NCBI RefSeq assembly: GCF_006345805.1
Contig: NC_043000.1
Location: 161,634,001-161,698,000 of the forward strand
Length of the DNA: 64,000 bases
Origin: Octopus sinensis
Lineage: Eukaryota
Direction of reading: 5' to 3'
Shown here in pieces: positions 2,884-46,534 of this stretch. Numbering within the stretch: position 1 is the stretch's first letter; each line of letters starts with the position of its first letter. The notes under the pieces are model-generated. The model did not search any database, was not told the DNA's origin, and worked only from the letters and a program-made list of their open reading frames with translations. The position numbers and the translations under genes are program-made.

Positions 2884-2923
<40 letters not shown>

Positions 2924-2927
<4 letters not shown>

Positions 2928-3363
2928 GTAAATAATTAATAGTTTAAAAACAACAATTGTTTACGGGTAGATTTTGGTATGTAAATATAACCATTATCGG
3001 TAGGAACTTTTTTTTAAAAGTTCTATATATATTTTTGTATATAAATAAAAAGGGGCAGGCAACAGGTTGCTTAGCCACATACCGAAAAAAATCAGAAATA
3101 TCAGTCAAAGACTATTTATTTCTACTTTCTACAAATAAGACCCACTTATGTAAAACGGAAGAAAAAATAACGAAGGCAAAGTCTAGGGTCCGTAAATAAC
3201 CCTAGACTTTGTTTTCGTTATTTTTTCTTCTGTTTTACATATGTGAATTACATGAATTTGTTATATGTAGAGTCTTATTTGTAGAAAGTGGAAATAAACA
3301 CTCTTTGACGGCTATTTCTGATTTTTTCGGTATGTGGCTAAGCAACCTGTTGCCTGCCCCTTT
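2924..3363. repeat. (TA)n-flanked element containing a ~315-bp imperfect palindrome (3048-3363)
   Basis: aaaggggcaggcaacaggttgcttagccacataccg...gtctagggt is the reverse complement of accctagac...cggtatgtggctaagcaacctgttgcctgccccttt; 2924-3054 recurs directly at 4019-4155. Confidence 0.9.
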
Positions 3364-3960: not shown

Positions 3961-4018
3961 GGGTTCTGATTTCAGAAGTCAGAGGTCGGAGGTCAAGTGT
4001 ATATATATATATATATAT

Positions 4019-4155
4019 AAGGGTAAATAATTAATAGTTTTAAAAAAACAACAATTATTTACGGGTAGATTTTGGTATGTAAATAGAACCATTATCGGTA
4101 GGAACTTTTTTTAAAAAAGTTCTAGATATATTTTTGTATATAAATTAAAAGGGGT
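4019..4155 (+). repeat. Direct copy of 2924-3054
   Basis: taagggtaaataattaatagttt...acgggtagattttggtatgtaaata...aaaagggg, again directly after (TA)n. Confidence 0.9.
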
Positions 4156-4159
4156 AGGA

Positions 4160-5597
4160 TGCGCAAGCAAAGTTAGCGATGATTGCCCAGTGGATTGGAC
4201 AATGCAAATCAAAGGCAGTCATCTATGAGGCTGAGTGGTACCCGGCAGTAACCGCAGCAACGACAACGATAGCACTAGCACTGACGATATCTGCAGTGGC
4301 GGCAACACTAGCAGCACGTCTGGCAGCATCATCTGCAACAACAACGGCTGCAGCATCACCGGCACGGGGGTATAGACACGGGAATATGTTGGGACTGCGG
4401 GGCGTTCCTTCAAGCAACGTCTTGACAATCATAGGTCCTCCTTTAGGAACCCAGAGAGGCGCAACATTGCATCCTTGGCCAGCAACTTAATTAAACGGAA
4501 GTTCCTAGAACAACCTGGACCATACGTTAACGGGAGCAAACGATAAAAAAATTGTTTGTCTGAGGCATGAAGGATCCTGAACAACTGGCTTGACCTGCTT
4601 ACCTTCTTAAACTCCAAGAAAATTGACATGGGTGGGGCCTGGAAATGGCTATCAAGGCCGCCCCGGAGGGCATAGAAAAAGTGGTAGTGGCCGTATCGGT
4701 CAACGGTGAAGTAATACTTAGGGTTAGAGTGGAGGGTAGGGCCCCTTGCTGTGACCAAAAAAGCCACATTAGAGCGGATGCCTTCCGCCGCTCGTAAAGA
4801 CACCGGTGTTACCGGAAAACGAAAAAAAAAAAACTGCACCTCCACCTCCTGCAGGAACCAGTGGGGGAGAGCCCAGCATCGAGGAAGAAAAAGAAAAACA
4901 AAGCAGAGGGGAGAGCCAAGGATGGATGGGAAACGGCAGGAAGGAAAAAGAGAATGAGGAGAAAGGGGCACAAACACTTAATGACAACCACCATCCCACA
5001 GCCACCCGACCCCTCACCAAGCCCCACTCTGCCCCACCCTTCCTCTGCAGACACCATCACTCACTCTAACCCGCCAGACACTGATAAATTATCTACAAAC
5101 ACACAGATTTCCCAACCCTACATTGTGAAAAAAGTATTGTTTTTTTACAATGAGTCACTCGATAAGATTTGTGAGGAAATAAAACAATCCGGACGATCTG
5201 ATAAAAGTAAATATGGAAGAATGTGAGAGAATACCCCCGCAAGTGAAATGTGTTATCACACATAGTAGGAACGCACAAAGACGAAGTGATGAATATGGGA
5301 GGGGTATCTCGACCTAGCAAAAGGATATTGATGCCAGAGGAGTGTCGTCAACAGTATGTTACCCTGAACTTTAAGAGACTTTAACATGGATATATTATTT
5401 GATTAATTGACTTTAAAGGTCTCAATGAGGTCACTTGGATTGTGGGGTCCGAGTGACATTCACTTCATCCATTTGTTAATTAATTATTTTCATACCATCC
5501 TTCTCATTCGTTTTATTTTCCCCCACTTCTGTTTTTTTTTATTGACTGTCCTTGTACTCCCTTTATGTTTAGCCCCTTGTCGGCAATAAAGAAAACA
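4160..5597 (+). mobile_element. ORF1-only (gag-like zinc knuckle) non-LTR element, decayed copy 1
   Basis: GLEMAIKAAPEGIEKVVVAVSVNGEVILRVRVEGRAPCC, GWETAGRKKR, Pro-rich tract, then 3' tail ctgtccttgtac...gccccttgtcggcaataaagaaa; no RT between ORF1 and tail. Confidence 0.7.
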
Positions 5598-5599
5598 CT

Positions 5600-6495
5600 A
5601 TGAACGTTTGTTCAATGACATAGAATAGTTTGTCAGTAAGTCACATGTTTTGTTGATTGTTGCTACGTTTATTTGTTTCGTGTTTTATAAACACTTTGCT
5701 TTGCTGCCTTGTGGCAGTTTTGTGGGCGTTTCCCCCTTATTTGAAGTGGAAGCGCAGTATAATTTGTTAAAAAAAAAAAAAAAGAAAATACGAAAATCTG
5801 AGATCGGGACTCTGGAGGTGCGGTTTCGGACCGAGGCAATTGCCAGGCAGCATTCGGCAATCTCCTTGAGGACCGACAAGATAGTACTTCTACTCATTTA
5901 CCTTGGAAGGCGTGCTTCCAGGGTAAGGGGGGAAAGCAACCCCCTCCCGGAGGTGGATGTGATCTGACTGGTGGCAGCAATACTGCTAGGCCTCGAAGAT
6001 AAGATTGTGGTCCTCTAAGCCACTAGAATAGCGCATAAAAATTGGCATGGGATGGGCCTGGAAATGGCTATCTAGGCCGCACCAGAGGACCTAGAAAAAA
6101 TGGTAGTGGCCATAACGGTCAACGAAGAAGTGATACTTACGCTTAGAGTGGAGGGCAGGACCCCTCGCTGTTACAAGTGTGACCAAAAAAGGCAACATTA
6201 AACCGGTATGTCCTCCACCGCCCGTAAAGTCACCGGTGTTACCTGAAAACGAAAAAGAAACTGCACCTTCACCTCCTGCGAGAACCAATGGGCTAGAGCC
6301 CTGCTTTGGGGAAGAAAAAAAAACAAAGCAGAGGAGAAAGCCAAGGGTGGATGGGAAGCGGCAGGAAGGGAAAAGAGAATAAGAAGGGCACAAACTATTA
6401 ATGATAAGTCCAACCTCCGCCCCACCCAGTCCCCAACCTGTCCCACCCTACCCTACAGACACCAGCCCTCATCCTACACCACCAAACACGAACAG
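5600..6495 (+). mobile_element. ORF1-only element copy 2, head-to-tail with copy 1, 3' end lost at a SINE
   Basis: RFRTEAIARQHSAISLRTDKIVLLLIYLGRRASRVRG..PEVDV, KNWHGMGLEMAI, ILTLRVEGRTPRCYKCDQKRQH; 6040-6440 closely parallels 4620-5040. Confidence 0.7.
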
Positions 6496-6496
6496 G

Positions 6497-6680
6497 AGTG
6501 TTGCGGCGTGGGACTATTTGATTACATTCACCTCAGTGTTTCAGTAGTACTTAATTTAACTACCCCGAAAGGATGAAAGGCAAAGTCAATCTCGGCGGAA
6601 TTTGAACTCAGAACGTAAAGACGAACGAAATACCATTAAGCATTTCTCTCGGTATGCTAACGATTCTGAAAGGTCGCCGC
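6497..6680 (-). mobile_element. tRNA-derived SINE (Nin-domain-like family)
   Basis: Reverse complement has B-box gttcaaattcc and gcctttcatcctttcgggg; the family recurs at 8485-8670, 16485-16880, 22578-22765, 55080-55190, 56640-56830, 62945-63830. Confidence 0.8.
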
Positions 6681-6769: not shown

Positions 6770-7700
6770 GGACCAAAATTGATATAAAGAAGCTTCACAG
6801 AAAATCTAGAAAGTTGTTGTTAATTTATGGAGGCTACCATCTGAAAGCTGATACCAAACGGCTGCACTTGAGGAGAGACCAGGGTGGAAGAGGTTTAATA
6901 GTAGTAGAGGAATGTGTACAGAGGGAAAGAAAATGTCTAATAGTGTATTTACAGAGCAGCACAGAAAAACTATAAACTGAAGACTCTATATAGAGAACTG
7001 GTGGCCAAGCGCGTGATAGGAGAAAAGGATAAGAACGAAATAAGAGAGCACGTGAGATTGAAGAGAAACTATTGCATGACCAATTTTGGAGAGACGCTGA
7101 AGACGCATGTGGAACAAAATCCTGGGCTTGGTTAAAAAGGGGGAAATTAAAAAAAGAAACTGGGAGTTTAATTGTAGCAGGCCAAGAACAAGCGATGAAA
7201 ACAAACAATTCGAGAAAAAATATATGGAAAGAATGTGCCAGAAAAATGTAGATCCTGTGGAAGTTGGAAGGAGACAGTGGCACACATAATGGAAGAATGC
7301 CCCAAGCTGGCGCAGGAAGAATACAAGAAATGGAGGTAAGACCAGGTTGTAAAAGTTTTGCACTGGAAACTTTGCCAGAAATGGGTATATAAAGCTGGAA
7401 ACATGGTAAAATCATTGAATCGAAAGAGTTCTGGAGGCGGAGAAACGTAAGATTTTGTGGAATTTTTCTGTTCAAACTGATAAGAAGTTAGAAAGTAATA
7501 GACTAAACATAACAATTATAGATAAGGAAAAGCGAAGTTGCTTACTGATCGACCCATCATGCCCGGTTGATTCCAGGATCGTAAAGAAAGAGGACGAAAA
7601 ACCAAAAACCATACAATCTCTTAAAATTTGTAACGGGAATAATTTAGAGCATCAGAACAGTAAAGTTCATGACTTTTCAGACGGGTAGTCATGATGGGTA
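6770..7700 (+). mobile_element. Dong/R4-clade LINE 3' fragment (CCHC + restriction-like endonuclease), decayed
   Basis: HLKADTKRLHLRRDQGGRGL, KCRSCGSWKETVAHIMEECPKLAQEEY, LWNFSVQTDKKLESNRLNITIIDK...LIDPSCP; bounded by (TAA)n 6682-6768 and 7733-7792. Confidence 0.85.
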
Positions 7701-7732
7701 TACTGGGCTTTGTATATTTTACCCTCTCACTC

Positions 7733-7792
<60 letters not shown>

Positions 7793-7793
<1 letters not shown>

Positions 7794-8462
7794 GACAACA
7801 TATCATAAAGTGATAAGTGCAGAATCTGTGGACAAAACGGTGAAACCGTATGACATATTACCAGCCAATGTACGCCACTAGCCCAGAAGGAATATAAGAG
7901 ACGCCACGACAATATAGCTAGCCGTGTCCATTGGACACTTTGCAAGAAGTATGGACTTGACACAGCAAAAAAATTGTACGACCACAAGCCTGAAGGCATC
8001 GTCGAAAATAAAAATACAAAGACTCTATGGGATTTTATGATTCAGTGCGACCATGAGATTGAGAATAGGAAGCCGGACATAGTCTTAATTGGGAAAGAAA
8101 TCAAACTATGCTGGATCATAGATATAGCATGCCCAGCTGACAACAAGGGATGCGATAAGGAAGAAAGAAAAGTCGAAAGATATGACCGGTTAGCTTGGAA
8201 ATTTAAGCAGTTGTGGTGGATGAAAAAGGTAGCAGTAATACCAATAATTGTCGGAGCCCTGGGAACAGTGAGCAAAAATCTCGAGAAGTACGTGAAACAA
8301 ATAGGGGCTGCAATAAGGGTGGAGCACTTGCAGAAAAACAGCACTGCTTGGAACCGCTCGAATACTCCGGAAGGTGCTCGAAAAATAAGAGTTGTTACAT
8401 TAGTTCACTGGTAGTTAACAGTGACACTGTAGTACATCCCCAGCGTTTGAAGCTGTGCAAAG
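7793..8462 (+). mobile_element. Second Dong/R4-clade LINE 3' fragment
   Basis: CRICGQNGETV*HITSQC, YDHKPEGIVEN...LWDFMIQCDHEIENRKPDIVL...IIDIACP...IPIIVGALG (REL endonuclease); TAA-like tail. Confidence 0.9.
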
Positions 8463-8484: not shown

Positions 8485-8670
8485 GAGGCACAAAGCCTGA
8501 CATTTGTGGAGAGGGAGCTTGTTGTTACATCCATACCAGTGTTTCTCTGGTATCTAATTTATTGACCACGAAAGGATGAAAGGCAATGTCACGGCAGAAT
8601 TTGAACTCAGAACGTAAAGTCAGACGAAATACCGCCAAGCATTTCGCATAAGGTGCTAACTATTCTGCCT
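8485..8670 (-). mobile_element. tRNA-derived SINE (Nin-like family)
   Basis: gaaaggatgaaaggcaa...gaatttgaactcagaacgtaaag matches 6560-6620. Confidence 0.8.
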
Positions 8671-11639: not shown

Positions 11640-12950
11640 TCACCAACCAACCTTGCACGCAGGAGGCGTTTTGATAGGTGTAAAGTTGCTTCCTCGTAAA
11701 ACTCGAGGTAATGGTAGGTTTTGGAATGTCTGTTAGGTATCTGAGCAGCCCTTTTTAGGGACAGTACTCCTCACCGATGTATTTGGAAGAGTTTAGAAAA
11801 GTTAGTCCAAAATATGCTCACCTCATAAAATCTGGTCAGTTTTTAGTGGTTGGCCGATATCCATACAACGCTGGAAACAATAGAATTAATAATGCTAGTG
11901 CTAGCCACCAACACAAGTTAAGATTTCTTGTTCAAATATTCGAAAGTTTGCTGATAACGCTGGAGCTCATCCTGAGCTTAAAACTGCCGTTCTTGCTAAA
12001 TAACTTCATACAAATTCTGCAGATATTGCAGCATTCTCAGAGATCCGCTTATTGGGTGATGGTTAGAGTACATAACTAGATGTAGAGTGTACAATACTCT
12101 GGAAGGGGTGGGGATGACAACGTATTGAAGTGGGTGTAGGAATTGTCATCAAAGATAAGCTACTTACCAAATGGTATTAATGAGAGAACGCGTCTCTGCG
12201 CATGAAATTTAATGCACGTGCTATCTATACATAGCAGTAAAGAAGCAAAAGTTAAATTCTATGAAGCTTTAAAAGATTTTTTGCATAGTATAGCTGATTC
12301 AGATAAAATTATTTCACCGGGTGGCTTTAATGCTAATGTTGGCATAGAGTGCAACACACGAAGATGCCTTGCCTTGGAAGGTATGGGTTGGGAAAATGAT
12401 GAATAATGGTTCTTTCTTTTACAAATTTGCATGATGTACTTTTTATATCAAGTACCAAGTTTAAACGTAAAGAATGCACCCTTGATCCAAACGTTGGCAT
12501 CTAATATAACTTGTAATTGCAAGTAAAGAGACAAAGTGTGCGAATGTGTGTTCTTTAACAGGAGAGTACAGATGACGTACTTGTTAGAGCAAAAATCCAA
12601 AATGACACTACATCGTAGGCAGAGACGATCTTACAATAAAATCATACCAAAACATATCAATGTAGGGAAACTTACAGACCCTGATGCGCAGGTTGTTATC
12701 CTGGGAGATCTTTCATAAATTCAGGATTCGGCTTCATGGAGTTAAGTACAAAATAAGTCATATGCTATCTCTCCTGAATTGTGTGATTTTCAGAAAGCTG
12801 ATATTCGTGATTGGTCTTGCGAAAGTAATACTAAGAATTTTTTTTAAGTAAGAGGCATAAAAGTAAGAGGAAAATAAAACATACCGAATTCCTGAAAATA
12901 GACGCCAAGTGCAAAAAATATTAAATTGTACGAAAAAACTCAGAGGAGGT
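11640..12950 (+). mobile_element. RTE-clade LINE 5' region (UTR + AP endonuclease), highly decayed
   Basis: ADIAAFSEIR, GVGIVIKDK, PNGINER, KVKFYEALKDFLHSIADSDKIISPGGFNANVG (GDFNAxVG), HP*SKRWHLI. Confidence 0.75.
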
Positions 12951-13094
12951 GGAGTGAATAAAAACATATTGCTAAATAAGATGACACTTCCCAAGAAAAA
13001 CTTAGAAGGGGAGATGTTGTAGGTAATTAGAAAGAATGGTACACCCCTTCCACGTAATGAATAGAATAACTTAGTCACTATAAGTAAAGAGAAT

Positions 13095-13800
13095 TACGTG
13101 AAATACCAGGCTCTGGCCTGGTTGTATTACCGATCAGCTTTACTTGTTCGAGAAAGGCTATCGAGGTACAGTAGTGCCATCTCACCGACATGCCCGAAGT
13201 GCAAGCGGGACAGTGAAACTGTCCTGCACGCACTCGTGGAGTGCGCGGGGTCAAAGGGACTGATAGCATATGTCGAACAACTGTTGTCAACAAGATGAGT
13301 ACAGCTATCAGCTGAATCAATTATCAAGATTGATCCACCCTCTTCCCGTAAGAGAGAGAGAGGAGAGAGTTTTTTCTGCATTATAGCTATACTGACAGAA
13401 ACAGTATGGAAGCCACGCGCGAAAGGGATTGCGACAGGTACTTTTATTTCCAGCCAAGATCTAGTTAGTTACTTAATCACCTTAAAAGTAAGATGAGGCT
13501 GGGAAAGAGATACCTGACGCATAGCACGTTTCGTAAAAGATGGCAGACTGTGGAGAGAAAGTCGAGGATGAATGCCATCGAACCGGAATAAAAGGAAACG
13601 TCAGTCAACGGCGGTAACTTTCACGTGATATGTGTGAATATTTATTTATAATTTTATTAATTTTAAATCGAAATTTTTAAAATCGAAATTAAATTTTTAA
13701 TCGGAATTTTTAAAAAATGAAAAACGCGAACTCTCTCTGTTTTGTCTGTCCTTGTACTGTTCCCTCTTCGTTATGCCCTGTGTGGCAAATAAAGAAAAAG
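13095..13800 (+). mobile_element. Tx1/L1-clade LINE ORF2 3' end (zf-RVT) plus 3' UTR
   Basis: LAWLYYRSALLVRERLSRY...CPKCKRDSETVLHALVEC; tail ctgtccttgtac...gccctgtgtggcaaataaagaaa. Confidence 0.8.
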
Positions 13801-13810
13801 TACGTAGTAG

Positions 13811-15465
13811 TCGGGCGTCGTCTTGTTGATAGCTGTTAAACTGCTTTGTGTTGAACGTGAGTTTTGCCGTCTTACGGAGGTATTGTTCGACGTCTTCCTT
13901 CTTGTTTGATGGAGGAACGTCGTAGGTTCGTGCCTTCGTAATGGAATGCGAATGTTTGAGATCTTCTTTACGTCGTCTGAAGAAGAACTGGTCAAAAGTC
14001 TGAAGAGAATAGACGAAGCAATGGAGGTGAAGAATTATGCACAGGCAATGAAAGAGAAAAGTGAAGACGTGTGTCTGGAGGAGTTGAGTAGATTCAAAGA
14101 AATGCTTAAACAGAAGGCGAACGACGTAAAAGTGCATCCCCCACAAAGAATTTTTAAAAGAAAAAAATTATTTACAGGATGTACTCAGCAACAAAAAGGA
14201 AAATTGAAATCATGTCGGCCTCTCAATTCGAAACGGCATTAAAACCAATCAGGCAAGGAATTTCTTGCCTTGCTAAAGGATGAAAATTTGGAATGGTGGC
14301 GGTACAATTCCGAGAGGTAGCTAGCGCTAGGCTGCGCTCGGCAACACCCTTAAAAACTGATGAAGTAGTGCGTCTATACATTAAGAGGCGTGCTTCCAGG
14401 ATAGAGTAGAAGGTATACCCTCAGAAATTGATGTAGACTGGCTAGCAGCTGCCATACCGCTGGGCACGGAAGAGAAAGTAGTAGTCCTCCACGCCACCAG
14501 AACTCCCTGTAAGAACTGGCAAGGGCAGATCTCAGATATCATAATCCAGGCGGCCCCGTAAGACCATGAAAACATGGTCGAGACCACACGGTCGAAGAGA
14601 TGACACTCAGAGTCAGAGTAGAAGGCAGGATCCCGCAATGCTATAAATGTGGCCTTTCCTCCGCTCCCGTGAAGACTAAAGAGAAACCCGAGAGCAGGAA
14701 GGAAATTGCGATTTCATCGACGACAAAAACCAGTACCAACCAGTATTAACGCCGAGGAAGAGGAGGTGAACGAGGAAAAGAACGGATGGGAAACGGTTGG
14801 AAAAAAAAGAAAGAGAAGGAAAAAAGCACACTTTGTATATGATTACCCCATCCCACACCGACGCGACTCCCACCCACACCCACTCCACCCCAACCTCCCC
14901 CTACAGACACCAACCCTCTCCATGCCCACGCTTGACACAAAGACAAGCACAAACACACAGGAACCCCAAATTTTCCCACCCTTCCCCTGTGAGAAAAAAT
15001 ATGTTATACTGTACAACGGACAAAAGGAAAAGCTTTATAAAGAGATAGAGTCGTGGGACAGAGCGATAAAGGTGAATACAACAGAAGTTAGGGGATTGCC
15101 CGAGTACTTTCATTGTGTGGTGGTGGACCCAGGGTATCTTTCGAGAGTAAAGGATTAGGAGAAGGACTTTGAGCGGTGGTTCAAGAAAACAGACATCAGC
15201 TCAGTACCAGAACAGGTAAGCTATCTTGAACTTTTAAAATAATATAACATTGATATTCTTCAGAAAGATGAAAGTTAACCTTTACAAATAATGTTTTAAA
15301 AAAGACGTTTTAAAAAACAGGTTCAATGAAGTCGCTCGGAGGTGGGGCCAAACGGCTTCATTTCATTTATCATTTTATCCAATTCATCCTTTCCAGCTCT
15401 TTTATTCTGTCCCCACCATGTGCTGCCTCCTCTGTGTAAGGCCCTGTGTGACCAATAAAAGAAAG
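13811..15465 (+). mobile_element. ORF1-only element copy 3, apparently full length with TSD
   Basis: SEEELVKSLKRID, RVEGIPSEIDVDWL, KNWQGQISDIIIQ, LRVRVEGRIPQCYKCG, GWETVGKKRKRR, tail gccctgtgtgaccaataaaagaaag; agtacgtag(t/c)ag at 13799-13810 and 15466-15477. Confidence 0.75.
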
Positions 15466-15569
15466 AGTACGTAGCAGGTGGTCAGAGATAGTCGTATCTT
15501 TATTGGTTTACTAAATATGCTGTATACCGAAGTAAGCGTTATACTAATCCAACATTTTATGGATTATAA

Positions 15570-18133: not shown

Positions 18134-20405
18134 TGTAATATGTATTATTATTCGCGTTAATCGCAAACATTCCTGCAGAAAAAGTATTTCCTGTATAGAT
18201 GTTGTGATAGAGTTACGACGCCCCCTTGCGAGAGATAGACTGGTCTGAGTAAAGTATAAACAGTTACGATCCGAGTGAGCTCAAGATTCGGAGTTCGTGT
18301 TAGATCGATGTTTATTTTGAACCAGTCTTTCAGTGTTGGCATCGTTTGTTTTGTGCTGGTGTTTTTAAGAGATACTTTGTTAATTGTTTTGTGCCGCTTT
18401 GCAGCAATTTGTTTGTGCTTTCTCTCATCGTTTGAGGAGAGGTAGCTATGGATGGAAGGAAGAATTCGTTTTACTCAGACCTTAGTCGGTCTGAATTGTG
18501 TTCTCAGAAGAGGAACTCGTGCGAGCGATGAAAAGGGCGGATGATCAATTAAAGAAGAAAAGTTTTGCAGAAGTGGAGGAAGTGGCGGACGTTGCGAACA
18601 AGGAGGTGGATCTGTCAATGTTGAAAAGTTATGAGAAGATGGTATACATGGTGGTGCCGACGTAAAGTTGTCTGCACCCCAGGAAGTATTAAAAGATATG
18701 CAGGAAAGGACCATTGTGTACATAGCATATTCTGTAGAAGATAAGAGAACTGAAAATGTATCAGCGAAGAAAACTGAAAGAGCCTTGAAGTTTTAGTCTG
18801 GCAAGATTTAGCATACCTTGCCAGAGGAAGCCGATACGGAACAGCAAAATTTCACTTTAAAAAATCAGCAAAGGCAAAGCAACATTCGGTAACCCCGTTA
18901 AGGACGGTAAGTGTGCTCCGCCTACCCATATACATTGAAAGAAGAATTTCCAGGGTTAGGGTAGAGGGGATCCCACCCGAAATAGATGTGACTTGGCAGC
19001 GGTGACTATACTTCTAGGAAACGAAGATGAAATAGCCGTTCCCCAAGTCATGAAAAGAGAAACAACCAATTGGAAAGGACAAACATTGGATATAATTATA
19101 CAAAGTTCAATGGAAAACCTTGAAAAAATGGCGGAAACAGTAACAATTGGAGATGTGGTTTTAAGAGTCAGGGTGGAGGGCAGAATACCTCGATGTTTCA
19201 AATGTGGCCAAAAGGGCCACATTAGAGTGGACTGCCCTTCACAGACTGAGAAAAATCAGGAGGAAGTCAAGAAGGTATCAGAGAAAGTGCAGGAGGAAAT
19301 AGAAATAAACGACGACGAACCGTGGAAAGTGGCAGAATAGAAAAACCAGAGGAAGAGAAAGAAAGCAAGTCAGACTGAATGGGAACCCCAACCCACCGCA
19401 TCCCCACCCATACCTTCTCAACCCCACTCTCACCCCGCAGACAACAAACCCACCCATTTCCCTCCGACACAAAACAACAAAAGGCACTGACACACTGGGA
19501 CATAAAACTTGTTTTGCATGGAAGCCACAAAGTTGTTTTGCATGTATGATGTTTGAAGGTGTAGATATGGAACTGATAACCAAAACAACGAGATGGAAAA
19601 ACACAAGGTTTATTATGGTGGAAAGAAAGACAAATATTAAGGGGTGGCATACATGTGTTTTAGTATCAGAAAAACTGAAGAATGAAATAGAAATGTATAA
19701 AGGTGGGTACAAATGTTGCGAAGTGAACTATGACATGAAAGGGTTGTCGAATAATATAGAGTATGAAGAACTTATAAAAAAATATGGACTGGATATTTTG
19801 GAAGGTACGGAATTTAAAGCATAAAGGAAGTGATACTACTGGGAGGTGGGGTAAGTAGCTTCATTTTCATTTTTTCATTTTCATTTATCATTCATCTTGT
19901 ATCATACGTTTTATATTTGTTTCGTTTGTTCGATGTCCCCACATATCTTTGTATCTTCCCCTCTTCGTTGACCCCTTGTGGGCTATAAAGGAACATATTC
20001 GGAGTTCGTATTAGTTCGCAGTGAAGTCGTAAGAGTCGTTGTGTTAGTTTGCATTGAACTCGCGCCGAACACGGTGTGTTAGTGCGAACTGAACTCGTAT
20101 CGAACCCGTAAGTTGCTGCAATGGTAGTTGTTCAAATTACTGTGCGTTGGTCCCGTTGCTAGAATGTGGTAGGCGTTCGATTCCCCTACTCACAATATAT
20201 TGGATGCAGCTGTGAGTGTTAACTAGCTAGAGGAGATGTCTTCTTGGAGTTAAAAAATTGCAGTAAAGTCCGTTCGAACGAAAAACAAGCGTGCTTAGTA
20301 AAACGGAAAACAAGAATGCTAACAAGAGTGCTTAGTACACGGAAAATTAAGAGTGCTGTGTGCAACGAACAATACTAAGAGTCGGTAACAAATTACGTAA
20401 CAACA
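18134..20405 (+). mobile_element. Gypsy-type 5' LTR, split by the insertion at 18304-19996
   Basis: TG start (approximate) and ...aaca end immediately before the PBS-like tggcgacgagg and a gag ORF. Confidence 0.6.
18304..19996 (+). mobile_element. ORF1-only element copy 4, full length (~1.69 kb) with 18-bp TSD
   Basis: Intact knuckle RCFKCGQKGHIRVDCP, YLARGSRYGT, VRVEGIPPEIDV; tail accccttgtgggctataaagg; attcggagttcgt(g/a)ttag at 18286-18303 and 19997-20014. Confidence 0.8.
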
Positions 20406-20407
20406 TC

Positions 20408-20418
20408 TGGCGACGAGG
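20408..20418 (+). promoter_or_regulatory. Primer-binding site of a Gypsy-like LTR element
   Basis: TGGCGACGAGG two bases after the LTR-terminal CA. Confidence 0.7.
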
Positions 20419-20475
20419 GTTTCGAAGCACAAGTAGGTTATTTAACAATTTGTTAGTGATACAACTTGTTAAATA

Positions 20476-20700
20476 ATGGAAGAGCCATTAGCTTCCATAG
20501 TACAGTTGCAAAAGCAACAACAAGAGCAGCAACAGGAGTTGCAGAAGCAACTATTACAGCAACAACTACAACAACAACAATTATTGGAGCTGTATTCAAA
20601 GAACCCAAAAAATGAGGTGAGTTCATTTTCGCCAGACGGCGTTTCGAACTCGATTAATGATTTCAGTTATAACCCAATGGAGGCTATAACTTTTGCATCG
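20476..20700 (+). pseudogene. Gypsy (Mag-like) gag N-terminus, truncated
   Basis: Q-rich N-terminus then SNSINDFSYNPMEAITF; breaks at the pogo-like end at ~20703. Confidence 0.65.
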
Positions 20701-20702
20701 CA

Positions 20703-21355
20703 GAGGAGACCGGGTCTACTTGTTACACGGGTAAGTTGTTACATGCCCTTTGTTTCCAACTTCAAGTAATAGGTGGCATTCGGGTCTCCACCTTGTGAAG
20801 AACAACACCAGGAAAGGTATGTCTCAAAAAACAATTTTTTACTCCAAAAGTGAAATTTTGCCACAAAATTATTTCCTTAACTATTAAAGTACAAGTGGTG
20901 TTACTGAAGTAGTTTGTAGTTCATTAGGAGGTGTTGGAAGTTGCCTTCGATACATGAAGGTGTATCCTGAATGTCATGCATTGCTAGTTGTGTACGAGGT
21001 AATCCTCAGAAATCCATGGTCGGGGCTAATTGTTACAGTGCGTCAACTTACCCAAAGCATGTAACAACTTATCCCTTCTATTTCAGTTTAACACGCCATG
21101 CCTAGAAGATACAAAAGGAAGACTACAAGGGAGAATACCCCCTCCTGATGTCATGGAAAGGGCCGCCAGAAAAGTTGTGAATGAAAAGAAATCATTACGG
21201 GATGTTGCCAAAGATTTCGAGGTTGGTTTCAGGCTCATTAGAGGTGAAGTTACCGGTATCCCTTACACTAACCTTTTAAGATGTTAACAGAACCTCAGCT
21301 GTACCAAAAAAATAAACTTTCAGCTTCTTTATATTTTCAGGTGAATTTCATGACG
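20703..21355 (+). mobile_element. pogo-like DNA transposon left end with psq-type HTH exon(s), truncated
   Basis: End motif gaggagaccggg..ttgttaca repeats; ATG 21098 MPRRYKRKTTR (1-nt shift) PDVMERAARKVVNEKKSLRDVAKDFE; GT-AG 21222-21340 then VNFMT. Confidence 0.65.
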
Positions 21356-22464
21356 TAGCACGTTGACTTTTTGCCCTCTATTTGTATTTTGAGGACAATG
21401 TCCTCGCCCAAGAGCACTTTATCTGAAAGAATTTCAATATCTCCCTGAGACCCCTGAATAATGGCAGAGATGTTCTACCCGAACCAATTTTGTTGGACAG
21501 AGCATGTAATCTGAAGGAAGTTGATTTTATCCGTCCTATTATACAACAGGGTGGCCATCACCTCCGTTGCATCAATTTCAGGTGGTACCTCTGTCGTCCT
21601 TATACGGGCAGTACGTCTCCCCATGTAGGTTGGCAGAAGTACCACCTCCTTCATTTTCAGGGGCTTCACTGAGTACTCTTGGCTCTTTTCTCTGATTCGA
21701 ACCTAGCCTCATTGTGCCATACATCCGGCCTCTTGCTATATATATTTCAAGTCCTTCCATATTGGAGTCAGACATTTCTCGATCGTGTTTTGTTCAAAGT
21801 GCTTGAACTTCGTTTCCGGACAGTACGTTTTAAAAACGACTGTCAGTTTCCTCAACTCTTCGATGTTGGAGGTGGGTGATATACTTACATCACCACCTTC
21901 CTCTTTTATTCTTCCAAAAAGCTCACCGAGCTTTTCTATCGATATGACGGTGTTTTCTGTTGCCACCGCGGCAACGGCAGCAAATTTCTTCAAAGGCTAA
22001 CCCGTGTTCACAACTCTCTTCGAGAGTACATTTTTCTCGAATTATTTCGACCGACATACTCGGCCGAAATTAATTCCACACACAAAAAAAAACAGTAAAA
22101 TATAATTATAATAAGTAATTTTCTTCGAAAAGGGAAACCTATAATCAGTTTTTCCTCTTAAAGAGGACATTTCAAATCCCGCCCCCGCTGGGGGCGGGGC
22201 GCAACAATAAAGCCTACAAAGGCTTTACAAAGTTCAATTTTTTAATAACAAAAATTCAAAAATAAAACTGTCAAGATGACTTCACAAACAAACAATTCCC
22301 ATTTCCCGGCACCGGGAAATAACACAATTCATTAAATGTTCGCAGTTCAGCAACAGTATAACAGTTAACAAATCCAACGGCAATTCAACAATTAAAGGCT
22401 TCAACAAAATATCATTATTCCTCACCAGCAAAGCAAGCAAAAACACGTCCGACGACAAGACGTG
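21355..22464 (-). mobile_element. ORF1-only element copy 5, 5' half
   Basis: YIARGRMYGT, KPLKMKEVVLLPTYMGRRTARIRTTEVPPEID, QNWFG, VLKIQIEGKKSTCY (cut at the start of the knuckle). Confidence 0.7.
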
Positions 22465-22577
22465 TAAGCAAGCTACTTACCACACTGCCACTCTTGCATC
22501 TATAGCCACTCCTGCGCTACAGTTGTGGAATAAATATATATCCAAATGCATATAGCATATTAGATATATACATATTC

Positions 22578-22765
22578 TTTTCTACTCTAGGAACAAGGCC
22601 CGAAATTAGATCGACCCCAGTACGCAACTGATACTTAATTTATCGACCCCGAAAGGATCAAAGGCAAAGTCGACCTCAGCGGAATTTGAAGTTAGAGCGT
22701 AAAGACAGACGAAATACTGCTAAGCATTTCGCCGGACGTGCTAACGTTTCTGCCAGCTCGCCGAA
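22578..22765 (-). mobile_element. tRNA-derived SINE (Nin-like) with 21-bp TSD
   Basis: atattagatatatacatattc at 22557-22577 and 22766-22786. Confidence 0.9.
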
Positions 22766-25169: not shown

Positions 25170-25543
25170 TTGAGGCGCAATGGCCCAGTGGTTAGGGCAG
25201 CGGACTCGCGGTCGTAGGATCGCGGTTTCGATTCCCAGACCGGGCGTTGTAAGTGTTTATTGAGCGAAAACACCTAAAACCTCCACGTGGCTCCGGCAGG
25301 GGTTGGTGGTGATCCCTGCTGTACTCTTTCTCTCACTCTTATTTCCTGTTTCTGTTTTACCTGTATTTCAAAGGGCCGACCTTGTCACTCTCTGTGTCAC
25401 GCTGAATATTCCCGAGAACTACGTTAAGGGTGCACGTGTCTGTGGAGTGCTCAGCCACTTACACGTTAATTTCACGAGCAGGCTGTTCCGTTGATTCGGA
25501 TCAACCGGAACCCTCGTCGTCGTAACCGACGGAGTGCTTCCCC
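25170..25543 (+). mobile_element. Full-length tRNA-derived SINE with 12-bp TSD
   Basis: A box tggcccagtgg, B box gtttcgattcc; acactcagcaat at 25158-25169 and 25544-25555. Confidence 0.9.
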
Positions 25544-29099: not shown

Positions 29100-32010
29100 T
29101 ACCTTATAATACATAATAACAAATAGTATTAACCTGGCCGTCACAGAACTAATAGCCACAGAAACAAATGTGAATATGACCAGGCCAAATAATATATATG
29201 CAGCAGCCTCTGTGGCCCCAGAAAAAGCTGGATACCCCACAAAACCCATCCAGACAGAAGTATCACCACCTAAACAAACCCTGTGGATAAACTATATCGA
29301 GAAAGAGTTGTAGACAATCAACACTACTAAGCAACAAGAAGAGAAGAAAAATACTACGTAAATACAAAATTACAGAACAAGGTATACCTGAGGTAAATGA
29401 ATAGCTAAAGCAAGATCTCGCCAAACCACAAAGAATCCGCCGGTATGAGAAATGCTAACATTCCTTTGAACAAAACAAATGGTTCGACTCCAACTCCAAA
29501 AGATCCTGCCAAGAACTTGGCAAAAATAAAGTAGAGATCAAGGCAGCACCAACAGCAGCAGAAGTGGAGGAATTTTGGAAAGAAATATGGTCGGCGAAGG
29601 AACAACCTCAGAAAAGGTGTATCAAAACAACGATTACAGCCCCTGAGCAACTCTGGAACCCTATAACATTTGAAGAGGTCTCCAAAATACTGCAAAAACT
29701 AAGCAACTGGAAGTCACCTAGACGCGGCAATAGTACCAACTTCTGGTTAAAATACCTAACAGGAACACATAAAAAGCTGGCTGAGAGATTTAATGAAATA
29801 CTAGCAGAGCCAGAGACAATACTTAAATGGCACACAAAAGGGAAAACTATCCTAATTCCCAAATCCACTGAAACAGCAAACCCACAAAATTATAAAGCGA
29901 TAACTTGTCTCCCTTCACTTCACAAAGCTTTTACTGCAATAATATCGCTGAGAACGAGCAAGCATCTGGAAGAAAACAACCTGTTTCCAGAAGAGCAGAA
30001 AAGACGCTGCCAGAGCTCATACGGCAGTAAAGATTAGCTACTAATCAATAAACCCATAACTGAAGACAGCCACAAAAAGAAGGGTCTAAGTATGGCATGG
30101 ATCGATTATCGAAAGGCTTTTGATGGTATTCCCCACACATGGATCATAGAAACACTAGCCATTAACAAAGTAGCACTAATAATCATAAAATATATCAAAA
30201 CATTCCGTGAATAAATGGCAGACAGTGCTACAGCTGCAGACAAAAGAGGAATTCATAAGAGCCAAAGCCATCCCCATTAGAAGAGGAATATTCCAGGGAG
30301 ACACACTCTCTCCAATCCCTTTATGCGTGGTGGCTCTGACACCTTTATCTGACATGCTAAAGAGAACTGGATGTGGATACAACTGTTACGGCAAAACAAT
30401 CAGCCACCTCTTATATGTGGATGATCAAAAACTGTACGCTACAAATGATAAACAGCTGGAAACATTGCAACAGACAGTACACGGATTTACCAAGGAAATA
30501 AACATGAAATTTGGCTTAGAAAAATGTGCCTAGTAGCCTTGAAAAGAGGAAAACTAGCTAAGAGTAGCAACATCACACTAGATAAAACAAATGAAATAAA
30601 AGAATTAGACCGAAGCCAGATATAGAAATCCTTAGAAATCAATGACATAGATACAACACGCACAAATGAAAGAGAAGATAAAAGAATACTGTAGACGAGT
30701 TAGATCAATACTAAAAACAGAGCTCAATGTGAAAAACAAGATAATAGGTGCCAACACTCTAGCAATCCCAGTTATAAGTTGCAGCTACAATATTCTTAAC
30801 TGGACTCTAAATGAACTAATCAAAATTGAGACGAAAACAAGAAAAATAATGACAGGATTTAGGATGCACCACCCAATATCTGACATAGAAAGGTTATATA
30901 ATCAACGTATGGAAGGCGGTAGAGGCCTTATACAGCTAGGAAAATATTACAAAATAACCACCATAGGACTACAGAAGTACCTACTTCAGAAGCTAGGAAA
31001 ACTAATTCACAAAACGCGAACAAAACAAAGAACTGTTTTCAGTCTTTAAGGAAGCTGACAAATACGAAAAAGAAGTCATAGTACCTAACACCTATAAAGA
31101 AAAAGAAGAAACAACAAAAGCTGTAAAACAACTGAAATCCAAACTAAAACTGGAGCAGCAACAGATCATGATAAAACGATGGCAAGAAAAGCCCCTTCAT
31201 GGCAAATACTGGACTAAACTAAACGCAAAAGAGACAAAGTAAAATCACAACAATGGCTGAGGAACTTAGGACTCACAGCACAAGACCAAAGCCTCCCCAC
31301 CAGAAATTACCAAAAACATGTAATGAAGAAAAAAATACGGCCAGCAACTGCAGAATATGTGAAGATGGCAAGAAAATAAATCATACTATCTCTGGCTGCT
31401 CAGTCCTGGCTAAGAAAGAATATATTTACAGACATGATAGAGTTGGGATCTATATACACTGGAAGTTATGCCAACACTACGGCATAACAACAAAAAAATA
31501 AAGATGGTACAGGCACACGCCAAAAGAGGTCACAGAAAGTGAGAAAGCAACCATACTACGGGAGATGCTAATACACACAGATAGAGAAATTAAGGCCAAT
31601 AAGCCGGATACAGTTGTCAGAGATCATCAAGAAAAATATGCTCTCTAATCACGGTATCAATACCTACAGCGGACAATGTTATTCTAAAAGAAACGGAGAA
31701 ACTCTCAAAATACAAAGACCTGGCAATAGTGATAACTCGAATGTAAAGTCTAAAAGCAGAAAAATTCCTATCATAGTGGGCGCATTAGGTATGATTGAAA
31801 AATATTCAGAAATATACATAGCAAAAACACCAGAATTAACAAGTATATATAACATACAGAAAATAGCACCACTAGGAACCGCACACATTCTAAGTAAAAC
31901 ACTTTCAATACAGTAAAAATAAGAGAATCACAACAAACCACAGCACATACTCAAGGTACACAGTGCTGCGCTCGGTTGTGCAGTGAAAGGACGTGATAAA
32001 AATAAGACTA

Positions 32011-32013
<3 letters not shown>
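29100..32013 (+). mobile_element. Dong/R4-clade LINE, long decayed copy (RT + CCHC + REL)
   Basis: NWKSP..NFWLK, GKTILIPK, NYKAITCL, WIDYRKAFD, RRGIFQGDTLSP, HLLYVDDQKLY, CRIC..HTISGC, PIIVGALG; ends at (TAA)n. Confidence 0.95.
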
Positions 32014-32079
<66 letters not shown>

Positions 32080-32080
<1 letters not shown>

Positions 32081-34121
32081 GGCTGAACAAGCACCTGGAC
32101 GAAAACAAACTGTTCCCAGAAGAGCAGAAAGGATGCCGCAAAGGCTCATATGGCTGTAAAGATCAACTAATGATTAATAAAGCCGTAACTGAAGACAGCC
32201 ACAGAAAGAAGAAAGGCCTCAGTATGGCCTGGATTGACTACAAAAAGGCGTTTGATAGCATCCCCCACACATGGATCCTCGAAACACTAGCCATTAACAA
32301 AGTAGCACCAACAATCATAAAATTCATAGAGCACTCTATGATAAATGGCAAACAGTCCTACACCTCCAAACAAAAGAGGGACTCATGAAAACCAAAGACA
32401 TCGCCATTAGAAGAGGAATATTCCAGGAGACACGCTCTCTCCACTCCTTTTCTGCTTCGCACTGTCACCTCTATCTGATATGCTAAATAGAACTGGATGC
32501 GGATATAAATGTTACGGCAAAACGATCAGCCACCTTTTATATATGGATGACCTAAAACTATACGCTGCAAATGACAAACAGCTGGAAACACTATTAAAGA
32601 CAGTTCATGGATTTACCAAAGAAATAGATATGAATTTGGATTAGAAAAATGCGCCAAAGTAACCATGAAAAGAGGAAAACTAGTTAAGAGTAACAACATC
32701 ACACTAGATAAAACCAATGAAATAAAAGAATTAGACCAAAGCCAAACTTACAAATACTTAGGAATCCATGAACTAGATAAGACACAACACACACAAATGA
32801 AAGAGAAAAAAAAGAAGAATATTATAGACGAGTTAGATCAATACTAAACACAGAGCTCAATGCTAAAAACAAGATAATAGGTATCAACACTTTAGCTGTC
32901 CCAGTTATAAGTTACAGCTACAATATCCTTAACTGGACACGAAATGAACTGTCCAAAATAGATAGGAAAACAAGAAAAATACTGACAGGATCTAGGATGC
33001 ATCACCCAAAATCTGACATAGAAAGACTATATATACAACGTATAGAAGGTGGTAGAGACCTTATACAGCTGGAAAACTACTATAAAATAACCACCATAGG
33101 ACTGCAAAAATACCTACTTCAGAAGGAAGGAAAACTGATCCAGATAGCAGCAAAACACGAGCAAAACAAAAAACTGTTCTCAGTATTTAAGGAAGCTGAC
33201 AAATACAAACAAGAAATCATACCACCTAATAAACACGAAGAAGAAGAAGATGATGAAGAAACAACAAAAGCTATAAAACAAATGAAATCCAAACTAAAAA
33301 TAGAACAGCAACGAACCATGATAAAACGATGGCAAGAAAAGCCCCTTCATGGTAAATACTGGACTAAACTAAACGTAAAAGAAATAGACAAAGAAAAATC
33401 CCAGCAATGGTTGAGAAGCTCAGGACTCAAAGCAGAAACAGATGTTGTGATGCTCTGATGGTTATTGTATGGAAAGTGTTCTGCGTAGGATGTGTGCAGT
33501 GCCTAGTAGTGTATGTTATATGTGTTTGTAAGTCCTGGTGTTTTTGTTATGTATTTGTCTGAATATTTTTTTATCATGCCTAATGCACCTACTATGATAT
33601 GAATTGTTTCTGTTTTCAGATTCCACATTCTAGTTACCTCTATTTCCAGGTCTTTGTATTTTGAGAGTTTCTCCATTTCTTTTAGAGACACGTTGTCATC
33701 AGCCGGTATTGATACATCAATTAGAAAGCATTTTTTTCTTCATGATCTCTGACAACTATATCTGGTCTGTTGGCCTTAATTTCTCTATCTGTGTGTATCG
33801 GCATATCCCAGAGTATGGTTGCTTCCTCGTTTTCTGTGATCTTTTCTGGTATAGGCACACACCAGAAACAATTCCTATCATAGTAGGTGCATTAGTCATG
33901 ATAAAAAAATATTCAGACAAATACATAACAAAAACACCAGGACTTACAAACACATATAACATACAGAAAATTGCACTACTAGGCACTGCACACATCCTAC
34001 GCAGAACACTTTCCATACAATAACCATCAGAGCATCACAACAAATCACACCACATACCCAAGGCACACAGAGCTGCGCTCGGTAGTGAAGTGAAAGCACG
34101 CTATAAAAATAAAACTACTGA
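32080..34121 (+). mobile_element. Dong/R4-clade LINE, 5'-truncated second copy with internal inversion/duplication (33443-33850)
   Basis: EEQKGCRKGSYGCKDQLMIN, WIDYKKAFDSIPH, LYMDDLKLY; same 3' UTR as 31920-32013; begins and ends in TAA repeats. Confidence 0.95.
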
Positions 34122-42008: not shown

Positions 42009-42803
42009 TCAATTAAATTTTTGAAAGAGGGAGTGGAAAAAGCAAAAGACAGGAAAGTGAGTTTTGAAGATAGAAAATGTGAACGAAATAATGTGAAAGA
42101 ATGAGAAAGAATATATATGGCCCTACATGGCCTTGCTTTTTGCTTTTTGAGCCAAAAAATTAACTTAACTAACTATATATATATATATATATAATATATA
42201 TATATATATAATATATATACATATATACATATATATGGTAAGTGGAATTTGTGTTTTTTTAATAGATGTAAGAAAGAGAGAGAAAAAGTGACCAAAAGAT
42301 GAAATATAAAAAAGGAGAGAAAAGATATATTAGAAAAAGAGGAAGAGAAGCGGAGAGTGAGGAATGAGGAGAGGGAAAAAATGAAAGAGTGCAAAGCAAA
42401 GCAGTAGCTATAATGGGAAAATAAAGGAAATAAAGAGAAGAGAGAGTGAGAGAGGCTGAAAGAAGGTGAGAAAAAGTGGTAGAAAGAATGAAATAATGTG
42501 TAAGAAGGAGAGGAAAGAAAAGAAGAGAGATGGAGGAGAGAAAAGAAGAGGTAGAGGAGTAATGAAGGTAAAAAAGAAGTTTAGAATGAGACTGGACAAA
42601 GAATAACTGCAAGGAAAGAAGGAGAAAAGCAGACTAAGTGAAACAGAGAAAGAGTGAGAGAAAGAGAAGATGAAAGAAGGTGAACGAAAAGTGATGGTGA
42701 AAATGAGAAATAGTGAGTTGGAAAGAGAGCAAGGGAAAGAGAAAAAGAAAAGAATAAAAGAACAGAGAGAAAGAAAAAAGGAAAAAAATCAAGGAAAGAG
42801 ATA

Positions 42804-43435
42804 TAGGCGCAGGAGTGGCTGTGTGGTAAGTAGCTTGCTCACCAACCACATGGTTCTGGGTTCAGTCCCACTTGTTTGACACTTTGGGCAAGTGTCTTCT
42901 ACTATAGCCTCAGGCTGACCAAAGCCTTGTGAGTGGATTTGGTAGATGGAAACTAGAAAGAAGCTCCTCGTATATATATGTACGTGTGTGTGTGTGTGTG
43001 TGTGTTTGTGTGTCTGTGTTTTGTCCCCCCACCACTAACATCACTTGACAACCGATGGTGGTTTGTTTAACCCTTTAGCATTTAAACTGGCCATATCCGG
43101 CCAAAAGTATTCTGCCTGTTTTATGTTCAGACTGGCCAGATCTGGTCTCTCACACCAACCCTACAATATCGTTTTAAAAATGAACAGCTACCTCATCAAA
43201 ATCTCATAGCTACAAGATAATGCATGATCAGTTCAAAACAATTTGGATAAAAAAGGATTAATTTTGGCAGAATAATGCGAACACTAAAGGGTTAAGTCCC
43301 TGTTACTTAGCGGTTCAGCAAAAAAGACTGATAGAATAAGTACTAGGCTTCCAAAGAATAAGCTCTGGGGTCAATTTGCTTGACTAAAGACGGTGCTCCA
43401 GCATGGCCACAGTCAAATGACTGAAACAAGTTAAA
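42804..43435 (+). mobile_element. tRNA-derived CORE-like SINE interrupted by a MITE
   Basis: aggcgcaggagtggctgtgtggtaag...gggttcagtccc...ttgggcaagtgtcttctactatagcc...tgactgaaacaag. Confidence 0.9.
43071..43291. mobile_element. piggyBac-type MITE
   Basis: TTAA|CCCTTTAG ... CTAAAGGG|TTAA; SINE sequence is continuous across the insertion. Confidence 0.9.
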
Positions 43436-46434: not shown

Positions 46435-46534
46435 NNNNNNNNNNNNNNNNNNNNNNNNNNNNNNNNNNNNNNNNNNNNNNNNNNNNNNNNNNNNNNNNNN
46501 NNNNNNNNNNNNNNNNNNNNNNNNNNNNNNNNNN
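46435..46534. other. Assembly gap (100 N)
   Basis: Run of N. Confidence 1.

Follow-up and report, generated by a model that had tools for sequence, protein, structure and literature searches.

An ORF1-only 'half-LINE' family with a 3' tail common to a LINE and a SINE in a 64-kb window of the Octopus sinensis genome

The window analyzed here comprises 64,000 nucleotides of Octopus sinensis (NCBI RefSeq assembly GCF_006345805.1, contig NC_043000.1, positions 161,634,001 to 161,698,000 of the forward strand; all coordinates below count from its first letter). It contains five copies, called A to E, of a retroelement family encoding a protein that resembles the first open reading frame (ORF1) product of long interspersed nuclear elements (LINEs); we refer to this element as a half-LINE. 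Copy A is 1,693 bp long (18304-19996, + strand) and lies between near-identical direct duplications (18286-18303 and 19997-20014) that match at 17 of 18 positions, in line with an earlier note on this DNA, made from the letters alone, which had described a unit of about 1.69 kb bounded by an 18-bp duplication. The duplicated 18-mer has no third site with up to 4 mismatches on either strand of the window. A repeat of at least 17 bp with at most one mismatch was found in 1 of 300 random pairs of 100-bp zones spaced 1.5-1.9 kb apart (mean 8.8). The right target-site duplication (TSD) begins 1 bp past the match to the family tail, which ends at 19995 and was defined from three copies.

Between these duplications copy A starts with a T/G-rich 5' untranslated region (5'UTR; 18304-18447), alignable to the 5' ends of B and D and presumed to hold an internal promoter. 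In shuffle tests of this region, none of 1000 shuffles scored as well for the pair B-D, compared with 25 of 1000 for A-D and 638 of 1000 for A-B. The 5'UTR is followed by a decayed ORF1 (18448-19824), broken by frameshifts and stops and delimited from translations, tblastn of its relatives and the predicted fold of one relative, P0081. Its parts come in the order N-terminal helix, RRM-like domain 1, RRM-like domain 2, CCHC knuckle, acidic/basic and Pro-rich linker, and C-terminal domain; tracing the relatives along copy A as far as the linker requires at least four segments in different frames and one in-frame stop. The ORF1 motifs named in the earlier note are present, in shifting frames. Pfam recognizes the single CCHC zinc knuckle alone (19191-19241; PF00098, zf-CCHC, E=8.6e-7). 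The same note had the frame running straight into the 3' tail, which we could not uphold: in A, B and C the Pro-rich tract is followed by a C-terminal domain of about 90 aa (19530-19821 in A), homologous in all three. After the stop come an upstream 3'UTR (19825-19944), common to A, B and C, in which a pyrimidine tract and a G-rich segment prone to form a hairpin occur, and a terminal tail of about 55 nt without poly(A) (19945-19996), common to a LINE fragment and one short interspersed nuclear element (SINE) copy in the window.

Copy A interrupts a long terminal repeat (LTR; 18200-20405, +) whose inverted termini of 5 bp lie at 18200 and 20405. A motif like a primer-binding site follows at 20408; further on, at 20476, begins a Q-rich frame that resembles gag, and the LTR element as a whole (18200-20740, +) is truncated after the start of this frame. 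We take it to be of the Ty3/Gypsy type; it gave no Pfam match. No second copy of the LTR was found in the window with a query that reached only to 20386, short of the LTR end at 20405. The LTR holds short imperfect internal repeats. That the duplication around copy A is merely a pre-existing repeat of this LTR was rejected within the one window, as the 18-mer has no third site and adjoins the family tail.

Copy B (13808-15457, +; outer span with its TSD 13791-15474) is likewise a full-length ORF1-only element, inserted in the A-rich end of the tail of the LINE fragment. Its 17-bp duplications (13791-13807 and 15458-15474) match at 16 of 17 positions, and it shows the same order of parts as A, collinear over about 1.6 kb at 61% identity; the earlier note had placed this copy, with a TSD, at 13811-15465. 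Copy C (4619-5597, +) is 5'-truncated, starts in RRM-like domain 2 and keeps the C-terminal domain, 3'UTR and tail. Copy D (5620-6495, +) lies head-to-tail behind C, to which it is 78-84% identical over about 470 bp; it retains 5'UTR and core, while the N-terminus of its ORF1 is internally deleted and its 3' end is lost at a SINE. The most divergent lineage is represented by copy E (21355-22466, - strand), which extends from the 5'UTR to the start of the knuckle and has lost its 3' end. Both partial copies, D and E, had been noted before and are real by sequence and by profile search. For the copy noted at 4160-5597, family homology holds from about 4619 onwards; 4160-4612 shows no similarity to the family, and no TSD was found. 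The latter stretch was rejected as the 5' half of copy C, given that 56-159 of 200 shuffles match its scores against the 5' parts of A, B and D. Instead, 4160-4615 (+) looks like a Penelope-type GIY-YIG end (weak Pfam GIY-YIG match, E=0.096) that holds an insert of low complexity and stops where copy C sets in; the Penelope-type reading of its motifs is our assumption. Searches for TSDs around C, D and C plus D found none, and around E just a 10-bp A-rich match. The 5' flank of E (22464-22520, -) corresponds to the head of a common SINE (it matches 42802-42842), so that this junction may reflect either an insertion into a SINE or a SINE-head chimera. Adjoining the truncated 3' end of E is a short frame (21098-21350, +) without a Pfam match for the stretch tested, which resembles the N-terminal part of a pogo/Tigger-type transposase. 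With a deep profile, no sixth family copy turned up in the window, and all five copies are now broken.

None of the copies continues into ORF2 (0 of 5; D and E have lost their 3' ends and are uninformative), and the three that have a 3' end (A, B and C) all lack ORF2. In copy A, 172 bp remain past the ORF1 stop (19822-19824), and no reading frame stays open there for more than 53 codons; because no long open frame follows, there is no room for an endonuclease (EN) or reverse transcriptase (RT), whose absence had been noted before. The distance from the ORF1 stop to the 3' end is 172 bp in A, 179 bp in B and 192 bp in C. These stop-to-tail segments are homologous to one another (0 of 1000 shuffles for A-B and for B-C, 1 of 1000 for A-C score as well). 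Thus the unit of the family is a 5'UTR, an ORF1 and a 3'UTR of 170-190 bp, and it integrates with target duplications of 17-18 bp. The G-rich segment just past the ORF1 stop gave folding z values of -2.6 to -3.6 in each of the three copies, in regions picked after inspection; a consensus hairpin shows double changes at 2 of 14 pairs and little covariation, and we treat it as a lead only.

The tail connects the half-LINE to other elements. A nucleotide profile that used no tails other than those of A, B and C picks up the end of a 5'-truncated LINE of L1/Tx1 type (13000-13799, +, 5' boundary approximate; tail at 13744-13799) with E=3.4e-8 and 29.5 bits, and the end of a SINE (63394-63442) with E=2.8e-4 and 17.2 bits. 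The next match has E=2.4, and the best in 20 locally shuffled windows reached 8.4 bits. All 10 pairwise alignments of the five tails outscore 1000 of 1000 shuffles. The LINE fragment, a candidate for the type of partner, consists of the ORF2 C-terminal zinc finger, the 3'UTR and the tail; it holds just the C-terminal ~200 aa of ORF2, with a Pfam zf-RVT match (E=1e-8) at about 13086-13250, and we take the residues after the finger to resemble L1/Tx1 ORF2 ends. Its upstream 3'UTR shows no homology to those of A, B and C (59, 59 and 719 of 1000 shuffles, respectively, score as well). The 3' ends of A, B and C are formed by a short A-rich motif, and there is no poly(A) run at any tail-bearing end. 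A conserved hairpin in the tail was rejected, four of five single folds being no better than shuffles. The SINE copy with the half-LINE tail spans 63225-63442 (+) and was the only one among 10 SINE blast rows to carry it, several others having a different common tail. The SINE-like body is repeated at 63225-63442, 22604-22758, 6521-6668, 8525-8669, 62953-63113 and 63487-63767 with at least two alternative 3' tails, that of LINE and half-LINE occurring in the 63.2-kb copy alone; it is an example of tail swapping. Among known SINE/LINE pairs, L1-clade tails were reported for just 3 of 58 and read as stringent 3' recognition (Ohshima 2012, PMC3472496).

To characterize the ORF1 protein, a profile of eight rows (seven pieces from the window and part of the protein P0001) was searched against 1.84 billion representatives clustered at 50% identity. 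It retrieved 588 proteins with E<=0.001, 206 of them with E<=1e-10. The 'high abundance' suggested earlier fits these 588 proteins, which are a library-wide count and not a genome count. The best 150 of the 588 are mostly short fragments, the longest having 623 aa, and long intact relatives of 527-623 aa exist among them. EN or RT matches by Pfam were found in none of these 150, which is uninformative, as ORF1 and ORF2 are separate proteins in ordinary L1/Tx1 LINEs; a CCHC family match was found in 9 of 149. Transposase_22, the ORF1 type of mammalian L1, was detected by Pfam neither in the window pieces nor in the best 150 relatives. The AlphaFold model of P0081 (132 sequences) has two ferredoxin-like beta-alpha-beta-beta-alpha-beta domains with block pLDDT (predicted local distance difference test) values of 85-97, followed by the knuckle region and, after a disordered linker, by a folded C-terminal domain. 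Foldseek ranked tandem-RRM proteins first (probability 0.99, E 1.2e-3 to 1.8e-3), and VIA-align of both P0081 halves gave RRM, ACT and S6-like domains (Z 6.2-8.2). The Atlas yielded leads only, namely unnamed eukaryotic CCHC clusters, ZCCHC3-type RBD clusters (0.87-0.89) and one DUF4283 cluster. On the predicted fold, two RRM-like domains plus a knuckle correspond to the layout of a type I ORF1, which has been tied to Tx1 in non-mammalian animals (Ivancevic et al., PMC5203782). The family protein is linked to LINE ORF1 by this fold layout and the Atlas leads, with no match to a named LINE ORF1. Sequence searches of the PDB gave knuckle or low-complexity matches alone for ORF1 and none for the ORF2 fragment. 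Word-index protein searches returned one match among 290 candidates and the query alone among 336, and are weak as negatives.

The sole named relative is UniRef A0A0L8G4Z0 (P0001), a CCHC-type domain-containing protein of Octopus bimaculoides (E=7.7e-23, 51% identity across 75% of a 126-aa query). It falls in the same clade as A, B and D, and differs in being annotated as an uncharacterised gene product rather than a transposon protein and in having another linker; its C-terminal domain is just borderline alignable to those of A and B. In another library protein, P0060, LDL-receptor class A repeats occur together with a piece of this ORF1 and a segment that matches repeats of the window (25210-25494). 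It is probably a chimeric gene model, possibly an exonisation.

The C-terminal domain of about 90 aa is shared among the window copies, with 0 of 500 shuffles scoring as well for A-B and B-C and 2 of 500 for A-C. A model of this domain from copy B (8 rows) is ferredoxin-like (RRM/ACT-like; pLDDT 81.6, predicted TM score 0.71). Fold searches with it gave no match at E<=0.001 and a best VIA Z of 5.7, pointing to no specific family; such weak matches are evidence for neither a new fold nor a family. Hidden Markov model comparisons in either direction between the domain in the window and the C-terminal domains of the library proteins did not detect homology, while hhalign gave E=0.025 and a score of 16.1 against a maximum of 15.4 in 100 column shuffles, with two copy C rows in poorly chosen frames. 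Homology of the two sets therefore appears plausible by eye and borderline by test; the alignment behind the copy B model contained library rows and is no independent test of it.

Most copies had been described as strongly diverged from each other, and indeed we find at least four deeply diverged lineages within 18 kb. For in-frame pieces of the core (15-129 codons per pair; segment pairs with alignment scores below 45 dropped), the nine between-lineage pairs have proportions of synonymous and nonsynonymous differences of 0.70-0.94 (pS) and 0.21-0.51 (pN), respectively. The ratio of nonsynonymous to synonymous rates (dN/dS) is 0.13-0.21 in the three pairs with finite dS. Synonymous sites are saturated between lineages while the protein is conserved, a strong signal of purifying selection on ORF1. 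The pair C-D has a dN/dS of 0.61 on 44 codons, a value that seems nearer to neutral decay of one subfamily. In a FastTree phylogeny of the region from RRM-like domain 2 to the knuckle (105 rows from 156 aligned segments; rows below 50 residues, including copy C, dropped), A, B, D and P0001 fall into one clade of 24 of the 105 tips with a support of 0.95, and E lies outside. Because saturated synonymous sites go together with a conserved protein and a common ORF2-less 3'UTR, the loss of ORF2 would predate several lineages: ORF2 was probably lost once, before the A, B and C/D lineages split, and diversification under selection would have followed.

Both full-length copies have TSDs, and those of A and B share no sequence. 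The LINE tail has an A-rich end in which the TSD of B begins, and this TSD also overlaps the 3' end of B itself. Such an arrangement fits a nick at an A-rich site combined with annealing by the incoming 3' end, and D may have come to lie behind C in the same way. The insertion site of copy A is unrelated to that of B and not A-rich. Clustering of the copies is marginal (P ~0.024 for five copies, 0.069 if C and D are one event). Insertion at a specific sequence is frequent among Tx1 elements but not general to them. With unrelated TSDs at the two complete sites, the targeting suggested earlier is unsupported. Nested elements abound in the 18-kb region of the copies. We rejected a sequence-specific preference for snRNA, tRNA or telomeric repeats, as no Rfam family, tRNA gene or tandem TTAGGG was found in the window. 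The TSD pairs of A and B together differ at 2 of 35 positions. With a substitution rate used for Octopus of 0.0036 per million years (PMC13282606), assumed to apply here, this suggests that A and B were inserted very roughly 8-16 million years ago, with a wide error.

Taken together, we consider that the copies represent a long-lived, protein-coding, non-autonomous half-LINE lineage that arose from an L1/Tx1-type LINE by loss of ORF2, a reading to which we assign a probability of roughly 0.7. The earlier note had arrived at an old, diversified ORF1-only lineage of this type mobilised in trans, and the type I layout, the lack of ORF2 at every preserved 3' end, the signal of selection and the common tail bear this out. 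Half-LINE RNA would be transcribed from the presumed internal promoter and coated in cis by its own ORF1 protein (ORF1p) with two RRMs and the knuckle, which may be why ORF1 stays under selection. ORF2p of an autonomous LINE would be supplied in trans and recognize the common 3' tail in the stringent manner, without poly(A), and its target-primed reverse transcription would yield the duplications of 17-18 bp. Because the SINE subfamily has the same tail, LINE, half-LINE and SINE would all draw on a single ORF2p. The positions of B after the LINE tail and D after C would result from insertions at A-rich tail ends with complementarity to the incoming 3' end, not from true site specificity. For ORF1-present non-autonomous LINEs in general, ORF1p has been proposed to multimerise with the proteins of the autonomous partner (Kojima, PMC5786205).

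Several observations weigh against this interpretation. It is derived from three informative copies in one 64-kb window, no autonomous element with the family ORF1 was seen in it, and the link from ORF1 to the LINE is indirect. The LINE fragment shares the last ~55 nt alone and not the remaining 3'UTR, RNAalifold found 0 pairs and no common structure in the five tail sequences, and zf-RVT also weakly matches a different window element (E=0.026) and is not clade-specific. Homology of the 5'UTR reaches the level of 0 of 1000 shuffles in just one of six copy pairs. As to the protein, Pfam found no RRM family in 149 relatives, Foldseek with the P0081 model gave no match at E<=0.001, the best VIA Z (8.2) belongs to an ACT-type domain, and a 48-row alignment searched against 8000 longer proteins for longer or fused ORF1 forms found none (a weak negative). 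Finally, seeding the tree profile with copies from the window biases it toward grouping them, and the purifying selection could date from still-autonomous lineages.

The last point leads to the alternative that fares best, though we regard it as unlikely: A, B and C/D might each be an ORF2-less by-product of a different autonomous L1/Tx1 subfamily, produced recurrently by a conserved deletion, splice or template jump, so that there would be no self-sustaining ORF1-only lineage and the selection signal would be that of the autonomous parents. Repeated loss of ORF2 is documented for Drosophila telomeric elements (PMC13534243), the intact relatives of 527-623 aa are seen apart from their DNA context, and dN/dS between copies cannot date the loss. 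Against such by-products speaks that all three complete 3' ends have the same short homologous segment from stop to tail without an ORF2 remnant, that no copy enters ORF2, and that the one 3' end with ORF2 in the window differs in its upstream 3'UTR.

Somewhat less probable still is a chimera, in which a LINE of another lineage or clade supplied ORF1 and the upstream 3'UTR, and swapping, as in SINEs, added the 55-nt tail; the half-LINE would then not be an internal deletion of its partner LINE, yet still be mobilised in trans. This would account for the restriction of the LINE homology to the tail, and the SINE family of the window indeed has alternative tails on one body; moreover, RRM plus CCHC ORF1s occur in more than one LINE clade. 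However, the single-knuckle type I ORF1 and the ZCCHC3- and DUF4283-like leads fit L1/Tx1 and match the zf-RVT partner, and since the 3'UTRs of LINE subfamilies diverge fast, another subfamily could share more.

We think it improbable that the ORF2-supplying partner has itself lost ORF1, so that elements with ORF1 alone and elements with ORF2 alone would each provide what the other lacks and form an obligate two-component retrotransposon, a segmented LINE. Such a reading would agree with the great diversity of the ORF1 family (588 clusters at 50% identity), which seems to have been selected for a long time in the absence of ORF2, with the 5'-truncation of the partner fragment and with the position of B directly behind the ORF2 fragment. 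But B was inserted separately with its own TSD, there is no positive evidence of an ORF2-only element, and normal-length L1/Tx1 families are active in O. vulgaris, where 13 recently active ones account for 421 insertions and 2.29 Mb (PMC13282606, Table 1). Just as improbable is a wider version, an ancient and large octopus radiation of ORF1-only LINEs, by which the partner's own ORF1 was replaced or outlived, alongside LINEs with ORF2 alone, with the SINE as third user of the tail and the RRM-like C-terminal domain as a candidate coupling module. Processed pseudogenes of a host ZCCHC3-like RNA-binding gene family, suggested by the one relative that is a UniRef CCHC-type domain-containing gene model and by the ZCCHC3-like Atlas clusters, are the least credible of all, given that the element ends in a LINE/SINE tail and lacks poly(A), that four or more deeply diverged lineages lie within 18 kb, and that most of the best 150 relatives are short fragments, as decayed repeats would be.

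The preferred half-LINE reading can be compared with known systems. Non-autonomous LINEs that retain ORF1 are listed as HeT-A (Jockey, Drosophila), HAL1 (L1, mammals) and Ag-Sponge (CR1, Anopheles) (PMC5786205). The half-LINE works like these three, with an ORF1p homologue, no ORF2, a LINE 3' end, and TSDs and several copies. HAL1 is similarly a non-autonomous L1-clade element with ORF1p only, with several origins in mammals (PMC5753468, PMC5786205). It differs in its mammalian host and Transposase_22-type ORF1, whereas the half-LINE has an invertebrate host, two RRM-like domains and a CCHC knuckle, and a ferredoxin-like C-terminal domain. In place of the poly(A) at the 3' end of HAL1, the half-LINE carries a specific tail common to a LINE and a SINE; it is thus not mammalian HAL1 and has an independent origin. 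The telomeric elements of Drosophila, including HeT-A, are comparable in being ORF1-only, in needing the ORF2 of another family and in forming monophyletic ORF1-only clades of several families (PMC13534243); there, ORF1-only lineages are described to give rise to new ORF1-only families (PMC13534243). HeT-A-type elements and the half-LINE both show head-to-tail neighbours. HeT-A, however, belongs to the Jockey clade, is telomere-specialised and has a long 3'UTR, while the half-LINE is interstitial with TSDs and a 3'UTR below 200 bp, in a window without tandem TTAGGG. Ag-Sponge, too, is a bipartite non-autonomous LINE that kept ORF1 after internal deletion (PMC5786205, PMC3414825); as described, it is set apart by its CR1 clade and insect host. 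L1/Tx1 LINEs of the stringent 3' type (maize LINE1-1_ZM, Chlamydomonas L1-1_CR, crocodilian Tx1/SINEU) share the RRM plus CCHC ORF1, and for SINEU-3 tandem insertions sandwiching a TSD are reported (PMC4494074). Compared with these, the half-LINE has no ORF2, no single target sequence and no predicted conserved stem-loop in its tail.

Our searches of full-text literature, whose scope did not take in Repbase, Dfam or the O. vulgaris repeat library, turned up no ORF1-only element of the L1/Tx1 kind described from any mollusc, octopus included. The 2026 repeat annotation of O. vulgaris has 80 L1-Tx1 families, with no mention of HAL1 or ORF1 in its supplement (PMC13282606). If our reading is true, the half-LINE would be an independent, diversified mollusc case, indicating that the ORF1-only strategy is general and persists long enough to saturate synonymous sites. 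A LINE, a half-LINE and a SINE on one short tail would be a constellation rare in the L1 clade (PMC3472496). Two questions would become testable in one genome, namely what makes a non-autonomous element retain an ORF1p of its own and by what means ORF2p of the L1 clade selects RNA without poly(A). Lacking RT, half-LINEs are likely annotated in octopus as unknown repeats or CCHC-type genes.

Other elements occur throughout the window. The LINE fragment at ~13000 interrupts a decayed endonuclease-like frame (11900-12990, +) without a Pfam match, which we assume to resemble RTE-clade LINEs. Long decayed non-LTR fragments that end in AAT repeats lie at 29400-34100 and 6770-8450, with motifs presumably of the R4/Dong type; within the former, 29956-31283 and 32085-33437 are 83% identical. 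A 159-bp direct repeat (2905-3059 and 4000-4158) is 94% identical, and its second copy ends at the start of the Penelope-like element. An assembly gap of 100 N is located at ~46435-46534. Between 4160 and 20740 most recognisable retroelement fragments lie on the + strand (A-D, LINE, Penelope-like, RTE-like and LTR, without a formal count), a bias that could reflect the orientation of an intron or a piRNA cluster.

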